Origin: Alphaproteobacteria bacterium
GTDB taxonomy: Bacteria; Pseudomonadota; Alphaproteobacteria; JAAXGF01
Length of the DNA stretch: 64,000 nucleotides
Assembly: GCA_963555825.3 (NCBI GenBank)
Contig: CAUVXB020000001.1
Location: 1,952,001 to 2,016,000 of the forward strand
Direction of reading: 5' to 3'
A program made the position numbers and the translations under genes. Positions 30,644-34,609 of this stretch are shown here, in pieces (position 1 is the first letter of the stretch; the number at the start of each line of letters is the position of its first letter). The notes beneath the pieces are model-generated. The model was not told the origin of the DNA and made no database searches. It worked only from the letters and a program-made list of their open reading frames with translations.

Positions 30644-32103
30644 CAGCGCCGCCGTTTATCCACCCCTTCGACGACGACAAGCTGCACGAAGAGTGCGGCG
30701 TCTTCGGCATCTTCGGCCATCACGATTCGGCCGCGCACACCACTCTCGGCCTCCACGCGCTGCAGCACCGCGGCCAGGGATCGGCCGGTATCGTGACCTT
30801 CGACGGCATGCAATACCACAGCCACCGCAGCCTCGGCCTGGTCGGCGACAACTTCAGCTCGGCCTCGGTCATCAACCGGCTCAAGGGCCGCGCGGCGATT
30901 GGCCACAACCGCTATGCCACGACCGGCGAAATCGTGCTGCGCAACGTTCAGCCGCTGTTCGCCGAGTTCGCGTTCGGCGGCCTGGCGATCGCGCATAACG
31001 GCAATCTGACCAACGCGATCACGCTGCGCGATCGGCTGGTGAAGCGCGGCTGCCTGTTCCAGTCGACTACCGACACCGAGATCATCATCCATCTCATCGC
31101 GACCAGCCCCCACGCCACCGTCGTCGACCGCATGGCCGATGCGTTGAACCAAGTGACCGGCGCCTTCTCGATGATCGCGCTGAGCAACGATTCGCTGATC
31201 GGCGTGCGCGACCCAAAGGGCGTGCGCCCCCTGGTGCTCGGCATCATCGAAGGCGCGCCGATCTTGACGTCGGAGACCTGCGCGCTCGATATCCTGGGCG
31301 CCGAATTCGTTCGCGACGTCGAGCCGGGCGAGATCGTCGTGATCAACGACGACGGCATCACGAGTCTCAGGCCGTTCCGAGACACGTCCAGCCGATTCTG
31401 CATTTTCGAGTACGTCTATTTCTCGCGGCCCGACAGCCACGTCGAGGGCTTGAGCGTCTACGAGGTCCGCAAGCGCATCGGCGCCGAACTGTCTCGCGAA
31501 TCGGGCGTCGACGCCGACATCGTCGTGCCGGTGCCAGACTCGGGTGTCGCCTCGGCGATCGGCTATGCGAGGGAGGCCGGGCTGCCGTTCGAGATCGGCA
31601 TCATCCGCAACCACTATGTCGGCCGCACCTTTATCGAGCCGACCGACCAGATACGCCACCTCGGCGTCAAGCTCAAGCACAACGCCAACGCCGCCAGCCT
31701 GACCGGCAAGCGGGTCGTGCTGGTCGACGACAGCATCGTGCGCGGTACGACGGCGACCAAGATCGTCGAAATGGTGCGCGGCGCCGGCGCCGCCGAGGTC
31801 CATATGCGCGTCGGTGGCCCGCCGACGACACATTCGTGCTTCTACGGCGTCGATACGCCGTCGCGCGACAACCTGCTGGCGGCGCGGCATGACGTGTCGG
31901 GCATGGCCGACTACATCGGCGTCGACAGCCTCGCGTTCCTGTCGATCGACGGTCTCTATCGCGCGGTCGGCAGCCACGGCCGTAATGACGACGCGCCACA
32001 ATACTGCGACGCCTGCTACACCGGCGATTATCCCGTGCCGCTGATCGACCGCGAGGGCGGCACCGACCGGCGTCAGCTATCCCTGCTGTCCGAATCGGAG
32101 TGA
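30640..32103 (+). CDS. purF: Amidophosphoribosyltransferase
   Basis: EECGVFG, LQHRGQ, CIFEYVYF.RPDS, VDDSIVRGTT, CFYG. Confidence 0.97.
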   Translation: MTAPPFIHPFDDDKLHEECGVFGIFGHHDSAAHTTLGLHALQHRGQGSAGIVTFDGMQYHSHRSLGLVGDNFSSASVINRLKGRAAIGHNRYATTGEIVLRNVQPLFAEFAFGGLAIAHNGNLTNAITLRDRLVKRGCLFQSTTDTEIIIHLIATSPHATVVDRMADALNQVTGAFSMIALSNDSLIGVRDPKGVRPLVLGIIEGAPILTSETCALDILGAEFVRDVEPGEIVVINDDGITSLRPFRDTSSRFCIFEYVYFSRPDSHVEGLSVYEVRKRIGAELSRESGVDADIVVPVPDSGVASAIGYAREAGLPFEIGIIRNHYVGRTFIEPTDQIRHLGVKLKHNANAASLTGKRVVLVDDSIVRGTTATKIVEMVRGAGAAEVHMRVGGPPTTHSCFYGVDTPSRDNLLAARHDVSGMADYIGVDSLAFLSIDGLYRAVGSHGRNDDAPQYCDACYTGDYPVPLIDREGGTDRRQLSLLSESE

Positions 32104-32791
32104 GCGGCGTGATCCAAGGCCGGCAGCGGCTCGCCGGTCGCGTTGCCTTGGTGACCGGCGCGTCGCGCGGTATCGGGGCGGCGGTCGCGCGCCGATTCGG
32201 GGCGGAAGGCGCGCATGTCGTCGCCGTTGCGCGAACGGTCGGCGGTCTCGAAGAACTCGACGACGCGATCAAGGCGGTTGGCGGCGGCGCGACCCTGGTA
32301 CCACTCGACCTTTGCGACTTCGACGCCATCGACCGGCTCGGCACCGCGGTCGCCGATCGTCACGGGCGCATCGACATCCTGGTCGGCAACGCCGCGATGC
32401 TCGGCGGGCTACGCCCGATGGGCCACTTCGAGCCCGACGTCTGGGAGCGCGTGTTCGACCTCAACGTCACGGCCAATTGGCGCCTGATCCACAACTTCGA
32501 CGCGTTGCTCCGGGCGTCCGATGCCGGCCGCGCGATCTTCGTCACCTCGAGTGTGACGCGCGGCACCTTCGCCTATTGGGGCGCTTACGCGGCCAGCAAG
32601 GCGGCGCTCGAAAGCATGGTCGAGACCTATGCCGCCGAGCTGGCAAAGACGAACGTCCGCGTCAATCTGCTCGACCCCGGTATCGCGCGCACCGCGATGC
32701 GCGCCGAGGCGATGCCGGGCGAGGACTCGATGTCGCTGCCGACCTCGCAGTGGCGGGCTGCCACTATTCGGGTAGACGCGTCGAGGCATAG
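32100..32791 (+). pseudogene. SDR (YciK-like) with apparent frameshifting deletion near 32741
   Basis: TGASRGIG, YAASK; SDR-like sequence stops at PGEDSMSLPT, and a plausible C-terminus (DLAVAGCHYSGRRVEA*) continues in the -1 frame to TAG 32791; the called ORF runs on to 32960. Confidence 0.65.
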
Positions 32792-32959
32792 CAGCCGTAC
32801 TCTGAGCTACCGACTCGGGCACACAATTGACGCCGAATCGAGCCTTGTTAAATTGTCGACACCTCTGAAGGAATCTATAGCCGGCCGCGAGTCCTGCTGG
32901 CCCAAACGCTGGCGCTGGGATTATGGCATTAGGCGCACCTACGCTCTAACATCCGAATA

Positions 32960-33075
32960 GCGAGAAAATGTTCTGGTTTCTATATTTAACGTTTCGCGTC
33001 CGACACCCCATTATGGTATCATTACAGTAATAATTTTCACCATTTACATGATTATAAATTGTAAGGGAGGACGCC
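32960..33075 (+). promoter_or_regulatory. AT-rich promoter region and strong RBS of the protease module
   Basis: Sharply lower GC than flanks; TTACA-N11-TGTAA inverted repeat at 33044-33064; AAGGGAGG before ATG 33076. Confidence 0.55.
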
Positions 33076-33576
33076 ATGCGACCAGAATTGACAGTTGAAT
33101 CTCTCGAAGCGCTTAATGCCACTGAAGAGGATGTTAAGGCGCTCGGCGACGCGTACGAGACGCTCTCGGCTCGCTTTATGCCGGAGGCAACCGCCATTAT
33201 GGCCGAGGCCGCCATCGACCATCCGGAGGCGCCTGGAAACATCGTCGGCTTTGGAATTGGCGAGAAAATATCGAAGGGAGAGTCGACGGGACGTCCGGCG
33301 GTGAAGGTCCTCGTGCGCGCGAAGGTCGATCCGGACCGACTGACCGAAGCCACCATGGTCCCGGACGCGGTCGATGGTATTCCCACGGACATCGACGAGA
33401 CCGGAGAAATCGTCGCCTACCAGTTCAGGGGCAGGCACCGGCCAGCGCCGGGCGGCGTGTCCATCTTCAACTGTAGAGTGAACGCGGCGGGGACGCTCGG
33501 GTGCTGGGTCGACGACGCAAGCGATAAAAGCGCTAAATACGAAAAAAAGAACAAGAAGATCAAGCGTGCGTCTTGA
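33076..33576 (+). CDS. N-terminal part of a NAL1-like trypsin-fold serine protease
   Basis: VGFGIG.K, VP..VDGIPTD..ETGEI.A N-domain, then RPAPGGVSI and AGTLGC.V protease start. Confidence 0.75.
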   Translation: MRPELTVESLEALNATEEDVKALGDAYETLSARFMPEATAIMAEAAIDHPEAPGNIVGFGIGEKISKGESTGRPAVKVLVRAKVDPDRLTEATMVPDAVDGIPTDIDETGEIVAYQFRGRHRPAPGGVSIFNCRVNAAGTLGCWVDDASDKSAKYEKKNKKIKRAS

Positions 33577-34163
33577 GCAACAACCACGTGATCGCCATGG
33601 TCAATGACGGCTCGCCGGGAGATCCAATCTCCCAGCCTGGAAGGCTCGATGGCGGGGTATGTCCAGACGATGTCATTGCCAGGCTCTTGCGTTTCGTTAC
33701 GATGAACTTTTCCGGCGGGAGCAACGAGGTCGACGCGGCGATCGCGCAAGCTGAATCCGAAAGAGTCGTCGAATCTCGCATCTTGCGTGCGGCAGGCCAA
33801 CTCGACAAGCTTGTACCGCCGGAAGTCAAAGGCGCGGTCAACATGAAGGTACAGAAGAGCGGCCGAACGACCGGGTGGACACACGGAGGGATCGATCTGT
33901 TGGGGGTCACCGTCAACGTGAACTATGCCCCTCCCGGCGCCCCGCCCAGAATCGCTCGCTTCGACAACCAATTCCGCGTCACCGTCCCTGGCGGAGGGGC
34001 CTTCAGCAAGGCCGGCGATTCCGGATCGTTGGTGACGACCGCGGAGAACCACCCGGTCGGACTGTTGTTCGCGGGCGGCGTCGGCGCGGGCGGCCTCGAC
34101 GTAACGTTCTGCAACCACATCGAGCTCGTCTTGTCCGCATTGGGCGTTACGATTCACTATTGA
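33537..34163 (+). CDS. C-terminal catalytic part of the NAL1-like serine protease (-1 frame)
   Basis: LSNNHV (His), QPG, VDAAIA (Asp), KSGRTTG.T, GDSGS (Ser), VGLLFAG; frame open from 33537, track start TTG 33573. Confidence 0.8.
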   Translation: MRKKEQEDQACVLSNNHVIAMVNDGSPGDPISQPGRLDGGVCPDDVIARLLRFVTMNFSGGSNEVDAAIAQAESERVVESRILRAAGQLDKLVPPEVKGAVNMKVQKSGRTTGWTHGGIDLLGVTVNVNYAPPGAPPRIARFDNQFRVTVPGGGAFSKAGDSGSLVTTAENHPVGLLFAGGVGAGGLDVTFCNHIELVLSALGVTIHY

Positions 34164-34184
34164 GCCCACGCACATGCGGCCGCC

Positions 34185-34544
34185 GTGGACGGGCCAACAT
34201 GGGGATTGATTTGGGTGTGGCGGCCGTTTGCACATGGGGGAGCGCCGTGCTACGCATGGCTGGCCGCTGGCGTAGCCGTCCTGCTGTTTGCCGGCTCCCT
34301 TGCGGCGGACGGCCAACTCGAAGTTACGGACGACATGGCTATCGAAAAGGTATTGGAGCGGCAACGGGAAGCGCTGATGCGCCGTCCCGAGGCCGTCGGC
34401 GTCGGAATCGGCGAGCGCGCGGGCAAGCCGGCGATCGTGCTCATGATCAAACGCAAGACGCCCGAGGCGCTGGCGGGGCTGCCCGCTGAAATCGACGGTC
34501 ATCCCTTGATCGTCGAAGAGGTCGGCGAGGTCACCGCGTACTGA
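34185..34544 (+). CDS. Small exported protein resembling the protease N-terminal domain
   Basis: Hydrophobic WLAAGVAVLLFAGSLA segment, then VGVGIGE, PAI, LPAEIDG.P..VEEVGEVTAY; start uncertain. Confidence 0.7.
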   Translation: MDGPTWGLIWVWRPFAHGGAPCYAWLAAGVAVLLFAGSLAADGQLEVTDDMAIEKVLERQREALMRRPEAVGVGIGERAGKPAIVLMIKRKTPEALAGLPAEIDGHPLIVEEVGEVTAY

Positions 34545-34609
34545 ATGCCCCTCGGCTGGCCGTGTTCCGTATGCCTTCGCGGCCGGGCGAGCGACAAGCA
34601 GGCGCTGGC

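Follow-up and report, generated by a model that had tools for sequence, protein, structure and literature searches.

The gene for a NAL1-like serine protease was found to be broken between two reading frames at a run of seven adenines in the window (the whole stretch of 64,000 nucleotides analysed). The break is best explained as a real A8-to-A7 frameshift mutation, which would have produced a young, segregating null or near-null allele (probability about 0.8). According to this explanation, a single-copy gene encoding a NAL1-like protease of ~362 aa would have lost one A from an in-frame A8, leaving A7, and the young A7 allele would segregate beside the intact A8 allele in the population of a sponge-associated alphaproteobacterium. 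Standard translation of the A7 allele is predicted to give a 166-aa N-terminal fragment without the catalytic triad, which would leave the allele null or almost so and on its way to becoming a pseudogene. The in-phase slippery heptamer found at the site would be a by-product of the place of the ancestral tract in the frame and not a selected signal. Ribosomal or transcriptional slippage may restore a little full-length protein, and nothing indicates selection for it. As an event, the frameshift would be an ordinary homopolymer indel.

The protease and its locus

The two window pieces were scanned against Pfam and matched NAL1_N (PF25608) at 25.7 bits (E 9.6e-6; cut-off 27) and Nal1_C (PF25819) at 18.0 bits (cut-off 26.1). 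The intact homologue P0127 likewise remained under the gathering scores (23.9 for NAL1_N and 16.5 for Nal1_C), and many homologues bear NAL1_N/Nal1_C in precomputed annotation. When a profile of 16 full-length homologues (A1) was searched against PDB by hmmsearch, rice NAL1 came up with E 2.1e-11. The match extends over profile positions 58-327 and brings the His, Asp and GDSGS motifs of the two into register. The AlphaFold model of the homologue P0001 showed a pTM of 0.83 and a mean pLDDT of 74.9. In the Foldseek search with this model NAL1 occupied all of the first 16 rows listed, headed by 8hau_D (E 4.1e-14). H171, D220 and S316 (P0001 numbering) are invariant in A1, and all three are found in the -1 frame of the window. 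Judged from profile and predicted structure, the two window pieces joined together are a NAL1-like trypsin-fold serine protease, and the profile and Foldseek matches bear out the first-pass annotation of this DNA, which had named the protein so from its letters.

The predicted protein has the architecture of rice NAL1 (PDB 7y77, 8hau, 8pmm and others): a small domain rich in beta-strands precedes a trypsin-fold protease of two barrels with the His/Asp/Ser order, and the Foldseek likeness corresponds to TM 0.58-0.60. It differs from rice NAL1 in being bacterial, of ~362 aa and only ~20% identical, and in having its gene frameshifted here. Parts of the text of PMC12012508 describe NAL1 as composed of an N-terminal domain, an ATP-binding domain and a serine protease domain with the triad H234/D291/S385. 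The alpha-lytic protease/streptogrisin group has the same fold in the catalytic domain (Foldseek E ~4e-10, TMt 0.70-0.73; profile E 5e-5 to SGPA), but the window protein has no secretion signal or classical pro-region and its N-domain is of the NAL1 type. Relatives are encoded by 590 stretches in one-genome-per-species contigs distributed over many phyla, and one copy of the protease gene was found in the host genome. PADLOC gave no match for intact P0127 or for the small ORF downstream of the protease, and NCBIfam gave none for either protease piece. A literature search on bacterial NAL1 homologues returned rice papers only.

The features of the locus are collected in Table 1. The sequences RPAPGGVSI and AGTLGC are both situated inside ORF1, which passes beyond the A run for 8 out-of-frame codons and then stops. 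The remainder of the protease domain lies in the -1 frame, where the triad is complete (His in SNNHV, Asp in VDAA and Ser in GDSGS); this frame overlaps ORF1 by 40 nt. At the A run the zero-frame codons are GAA (33541-43), AAA (33544-46) and AAG (33547-49). Frames, motifs, overlap and the coordinates and phase of the heptamer had all been reported in the first-pass annotation, and re-reading of the sequence confirmed each of them. The same annotation expected a -1 product of about 361 aa; its exact length would be 362 aa (158 + 204 codons). A consensus promoter scan found no match upstream of ORF1, and a promoter/terminator scan of the locus gave nothing useful.

Table 1. Features of the protease locus, in positions of the window
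Feature	Position	Strand	Remarks
Upstream SDR gene	32100-32960		
AT-rich stretch	~32960-33060		upstream of the Shine-Dalgarno-like sequence
Shine-Dalgarno-like AAGGGAGGA	33063..33071	+	4 nt 5' of the ORF1 ATG; read from sequence
ORF1	33076..33576	+	166 aa; ATG 33076, TGA 33574-33576; N-terminal helical part, NAL1_N-like domain and first beta-strands of the protease fold
-1 frame	33537..34163	+	preceded by TAA 33534-33536; stop 34161-34163
A7 tract	33542..33548	+	G follows at 33549; site of the one-base loss
A_AAA_AAG heptamer	33543..33549	+	X_XXY_YYZ phase, within the overlap
Small downstream ORF	34185..34544	+	119 aa; hydrophobic stretch at the N-terminus; includes a paralogue of the protease N-domain

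The A run in public DNA and in related alleles

The stretch was present wholly or partly in 20 of 24 listed public runs, which come from nine studies, and A7 was not confined to one host label or study. Contigs were compared from four runs, namely the DNA runs X1 (the possible source sample), X2 and X6, representing three studies, and the RNA run X17. Logan contigs of X1 (depth 8.5), X2 (depth 74) and X6 (depth 33), covering 33000-34215 or 33000-34600, showed 0 gaps and 0-1 other letters across A7. Six contigs in NCBI, Logan and ENA also encode exactly the 166-aa ORF1 protein. The choice between A7 and A8, which the first-pass annotation had wanted checked, thus fell on A7 in the assembled contigs of all three DNA runs, and since these independent contigs from three studies agree, A7 is real DNA and no assembly error. 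A genome-wide count found frame breaks at 58 of 594 homopolymer positions and, for reference, at 1793 of 80000 positions chosen at random, a comparison which is dominated by IS copies and noisy at 65% GC; outside the IS copies such breaks are few and not pervasive in the genome. The idea that a sequencing or assembly error in the homopolymer conceals an intact gene, to which the 6.04 Mb genome in 2 contigs lends some colour by suggesting homopolymer-error-prone long reads, is hardly credible against the agreeing contigs, the recurring ORF1 protein and the few homopolymer frame breaks outside IS copies. The annotation had itself offered an A-run indel as the alternative to its main proposal; of its two forms, mutation is supported by the A8 of a close relative described below and sequencing error is excluded by the three contig sets. 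Contigs of the RNA run cover only 33082-33286 and 33715-34600, with the A run uncovered; they touch both ORFs, and the protease locus may still be transcribed, although DNA carry-over is possible.

The sole close DNA relative compared is L086, a 1521-bp metagenome contig of ~94% DNA identity. It possesses A8 at the same position and a single open frame through the junction, and over 200 alignment columns surrounding the site it differs from the window by 3 mismatches and a 1-base gap. The tract of L086 reads GAA AAA AAA GAA, and removal of any one A converts it to GAA AAA AAG AAC. Because any single-A loss from the in-frame A8 yields A_AAA_AAG in the X_XXY_YYZ phase, the phase of the heptamer is automatic, and as it follows from an A8 ancestor it is not independent evidence for a recoding signal. 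A phased slippery heptamer in a short overlap is what is expected when an in-frame A8 starting at codon position 2 loses one base. This is a caution for sequence scans, in which the heptamer phase carries no weight for programmed recoding.

At the protein level, P0001 (362 aa) is 95% identical to the -1 frame and unbroken through the junction. Its 90% cluster has 16 members, 15 of which are listed. The split ORF1 types in this cluster (166/167 aa) are P0121, P0124, P0126, P0129 and P0133, with at least 11 contig sightings, and the split ORF2 types (191/196 aa) are P0122, P0123, P0125, P0130 and P0134. Intact forms among the listed members are P0001, P0127, P0131 and P0132, each sighted on one contig. 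Among listed members of the same cluster the split form is therefore the commoner one in public data (at least 11 ORF1-type contigs against 4 intact). Intact P0127 (362 aa) differs from the two window pieces by 1 residue, so both tract states coexist on almost the same background. From the comparison of these alleles the ancestral state is predicted to be A8 with an intact frame. In this sponge-associated bacterium a null allele of the single-copy NAL1-like protease would be segregating, with the intact allele still in circulation.

Outside this cluster the split was not conserved. In tblastn each of the 85 other loci (L002-L086) gave one HSP spanning residues 140-172, and the window locus alone was split. 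Among the 22 best protein matches, 21 were 339-362 aa long and the exception was located on a 1143-bp contig. A homologue was found in 4 of the 40 relatives searched, in all four as a single open frame with no internal stop. Nine sister clusters were also compared, where 49 of the 56 listed members were full length and none was split at the window junction. The first-pass annotation had asked whether homologues conserve the split and the heptamer; with 85/85 other loci unsplit and A8 in L086 they do not, and all close homologues outside the near-clonal group being unsplit is part of the outcome it had named as speaking against recoding.

Among the 7 shorter members of the sister clusters four were read and three were labelled partial by the source. 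P0142 runs through the junction and ends after it on a 971-bp contig. Two others, P0136 (87 aa) and P0138 (43 aa), start far downstream of the junction and hold just C-terminal sequence. P0139 passes the junction and breaks ~130 residues on, with P0138 as its leftover piece, representing an independent frameshift in a sister lineage. This second frameshift, read from the sequences of P0139 and P0138, suggests that the protease gene may be dispensable in the clade. Eighteen short matches were read as well and were mostly contig-end fragments or alternative start calls; P0036, P0093 and P0097, which start a few residues before SNNHV, were counted neither for nor against a recurrent split.

The junction is positioned in a loop which varies by up to 13 residues in length among homologues in the A1 alignment. 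In the P0001 model this loop has pLDDT <50 for residues 150-161 and is situated between strands 143-147 and 165-168, just before His171. The codons of the tract contribute to a surface loop rich in Lys and Glu, which is specific to the lineage and precedes the catalytic His, and a low-complexity loop insert of this kind is prone to slippage mutation.

Constraint, slippage and the alternatives to a probable null allele

The two sides of the break were analyzed for signs of decay. Nine close relatives agree at 48 columns upstream and 200 columns downstream of the break, and at none of these does the window copy have a change of its own. Against L086, dN/dS was 0.37 over the 61 codons upstream and 0.36 over the 204 codons downstream, values which sum both branches and cannot date the break. 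They are compatible with continued constraint and do not separate recent loss from function. Other split alleles carry changes at family-invariant columns: D220E, affecting the catalytic Asp, in P0125, L204I together with P249S in P0130, and P249S in P0128. Taken together, 3 of 5 distinct downstream substitutions in split alleles fall at family-invariant columns, a proportion which is not statistically significant, and the intact P0131 and P0132 show 0 changes at invariant columns. In these small numbers the pattern is suggestive of decay in the other split alleles.

Several observations stand against the mutation reading. The window copy shows no secondary decay and its triad is intact, public data contain the split form more often than the intact one, and dN/dS is 0.36-0.37 on both sides of the break. 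The shift-prone heptamer, the A7/A8 junctions of IS630-like elements and the partial coverage in an RNA library are further counterpoints.

The host genome holds 37 near-full IS630-like copies in three families (16, 14 and 7 copies), which encode HTH domains followed by DDE_3. In these copies the two frames meet at A7 or A8 runs, and slippage on such runs therefore probably occurs in the host cell. The A_AAA_AAG heptamer is intrinsically shift-prone. A crude count made without gene calls placed 22 genomic occurrences of AAAAAAG inside long open frames in X_XXY_YYZ phase, and it was not used as evidence.

With slippage of this kind, the change from A8 to A7 might be a tolerated or even favoured 'throttle' allele that supplies a trickle of enzyme, or, as a variant of the same idea, one position of an A7/A8 on/off toggle. 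If so, most synthesis of a NAL1-like cage protease would be off, and a ribosomal -1 shift or addition of an A by RNA polymerase would keep a trickle. This would explain why the A7 allele is the commonest form in symbionts of several host species and why the window copy is undamaged. The proposal is considered unlikely. The nearest described class is that of corrective ('savior') frameshifting alleles, in which likewise the frame is disrupted by a one-base change within a mononucleotide run, and it is at this run that ribosomes or RNA polymerase could restore it. In the portions of PMC5009743 dealing with homopolymer indel alleles and compensatory slippage, the class covers Buchnera and Blochmannia, and transcriptional slippage is said to be efficient on runs of at least 9. 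The window differs from this class in that its run has only 7 bases and that no product or slipped RNA has been observed.

Phase variation, with the A7/A8 tract as a reversible on/off switch operated by replication slippage, would account for both tract lengths occurring on nearly identical backgrounds (P0121 plus P0123 against P0127, 1 residue apart). One deletion event on one background can explain all the A7 alleles, and no sign of reversal was found among the alleles and contigs compared. Only A7 was present in the three deep contig sets, though contigs drop rare variants. A tract of 7-8 bases is also short for a contingency locus. A switch of this type is judged quite improbable.

The preferred reading of a null or near-null allele was weighed further against selected programmed -1 frameshifting, the main proposal of the first-pass annotation, in which recoding was thought to restrain a toxic or defence protease. 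Most ribosomes would stop after ORF1 and a fixed minority would slip, keeping the active protease at low dose. The correctly phased heptamer inside the 40-nt overlap would fit such a design, and it is identical in sequence and phase to the -1 sites of the E. coli dnaX and IS3 type. Unlike those, the window site has neither an upstream SD nor a downstream hairpin, its split is unconserved, and the host has a tRNA-Lys(CUU) which E. coli has not. No SD-like (GGAG-like) sequence was detected in the 20 nt upstream of the heptamer. Three downstream or spanning stretches folded no better than their shuffles (z 0.01, 0.99 and -0.16), and an Rfam scan of the site gave no match at E <= 1. Tsuchihashi and Brown reportedly observed in 1992 that an AAG-cognate tRNA supplied to E. 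coli lowers dnaX frameshifting. The tRNA-Lys set of the host comprises one CUU and two UUU. In the part of PMC5009743 that treats this heptamer, A_AAA_AAG is described as highly shift-prone in E. coli because its sole tRNA-Lys pairs weakly with AAG, and tight pairing is anticipated where, as in Thermus thermophilus, a second tRNA-Lys cognate to AAG is available. Following that account (PMC5009743), the tRNA-Lys(CUU) of the host removes the feature which makes the heptamer so shift-prone in E. coli.

The otherwise pristine window copy, the wide spread of the split allele and the A7/A8 runs at the frame junctions of IS630-like elements in the same genome also agree with a selected signal. They are opposed by the automatic phase from an A8 ancestor and by the absence of the split from 85/85 other loci and from the listed members of all nine sister clusters. 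An intact allele is present on a near-identical background (P0127), no SD-like sequence, downstream structure or Rfam element was found at the site, and the catalytic Asp is lost in one split allele (P0125, D220E). As control of a defence protease in particular, the proposal gains nothing from PADLOC, which gave no match. Unsplit close homologues, the lack of a stimulatory element, the PADLOC result and the tRNA-Lys(CUU) together turned the analysis away from selected recoding, which is regarded as very unlikely.

A functional two-piece protease, with ORF2 made by termination-reinitiation at TTGA (33573-33576) and assembled with ORF1, has next to nothing in its favour beyond the overlap of the ORF1 stop with a TTG in the ORF2 frame: the same TTGA letters encode Leu-Ser in intact L086 and so did not evolve for coupling, no SD-like sequence precedes this TTG or the GTG at 33588, the modelled fold, cut after the first strands of the N-terminal barrel and ahead of the catalytic His, would have to be built from two chains, and no such split was found in any other lineage among the 85 loci and nine sister clusters compared.

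Neighbouring genes

In the SDR gene upstream of the protease, the last ~75 residues are without match to any SDR model, and neither of the other two frames obviously continues it. The small ORF downstream of the protease is related to the protease N-domain with 36% identity over 72 aa (E 5e-9). It is kept in L086 and in L002, with dN/dS of 0.28 against L086. A similar small neighbour was present beside the protease in 33 of 86 loci, and bacterial NAL1-like proteases thus often adjoin a small gene encoding just their N-domain.

Organization of the protease and the small N-domain gene

The NAL1-like serine protease gene is directly adjoined by a small (+) strand ORF that contains only a paralogue of the protease N-domain. 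The two N-domains share 36% identity across 72 aa, and the product of the small ORF in the window possesses a hydrophobic stretch at its N-terminus. The same arrangement, a protease gene with an adjacent N-domain-only small gene, was also found in L002, in the ~94%-identical metagenome locus L086 and in others. When the 86 protease loci were searched by tblastn (E <= 0.01), 33 were flanked by a separate N-domain-like coding stretch, mostly situated downstream. Protease and small N-domain gene look like a conserved two-gene module.

In L002, der also adjoins the protease and the small ORF. Upstream of this module lies another piece of the C-terminus of der (residues 430-500, 76% identity), which suggests a possible insertion of the module next to der accompanied by a duplication.

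Features of the window, the related locus and the genome
Feature	Position	Strand	Remark
SDR-family ORF	window 32100-32960	+	
Small ORF	window 34185-34544	+	N-domain paralogue only; directly adjoins protease gene
L002, protease module locus	G007:C80:11366-14944		67%-identical relative
L087, IS630-like	C1:1847800-1849100		G000, outside window
L088, IS630-like	C1:1021900-1023900		G000, outside window
L089, IS630-like	C1:1828700-1830100		G000, outside window

Frame change in a sister lineage

A protease copy of a sister lineage is represented by P0139 (N-terminal part) and P0138 (C-terminal leftover), both from one contig size of 2331 bp. In this copy the loop is read through, and the frame changes about 130 residues beyond it, inside an APPGAPP stretch. 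The protease gene was thus broken here independently and at a different site.

Sequence on both sides of the protease gene

The SDR-family ORF upstream matched positions 1-190 of the 236 in the Pfam model adh_short_C2. Its last ~75 residues showed no match to the SDR Pfam models and no continuation was visible in the other frames inspected; the C-terminus may be divergent or altered. In the sequencing run X6, a single 232-base contig (depth 10.2) links window position 34092 to 34392 with 26 other letters in between. Its shorter side fits by 22 letters only, and its probable source is a G+C-rich repeat or another organism rather than a deletion variant.

Homopolymers, tRNAs and IS630-like families of the genome

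The genome has 65% GC, yet a genome-wide scan revealed very long G or C homopolymers with runs of 10 to 39, among them G39, C28, C23 (twice) and G21. One G21 run, at C2:1939607, is flanked by two long open frames. ARAGORN called a tRNA-His with anticodon ATG in addition to the normal GTG one; this unusual call may be a mis-prediction.

Three IS630-like families are present in 16, 14 and 7 near-full copies with 94.6-100% identity. In each family, a DDE_3 transposase frame comes after the HTH domains, and the two frames join at a run of A7 or A8. These families are an IS expansion with recoding-type junctions.
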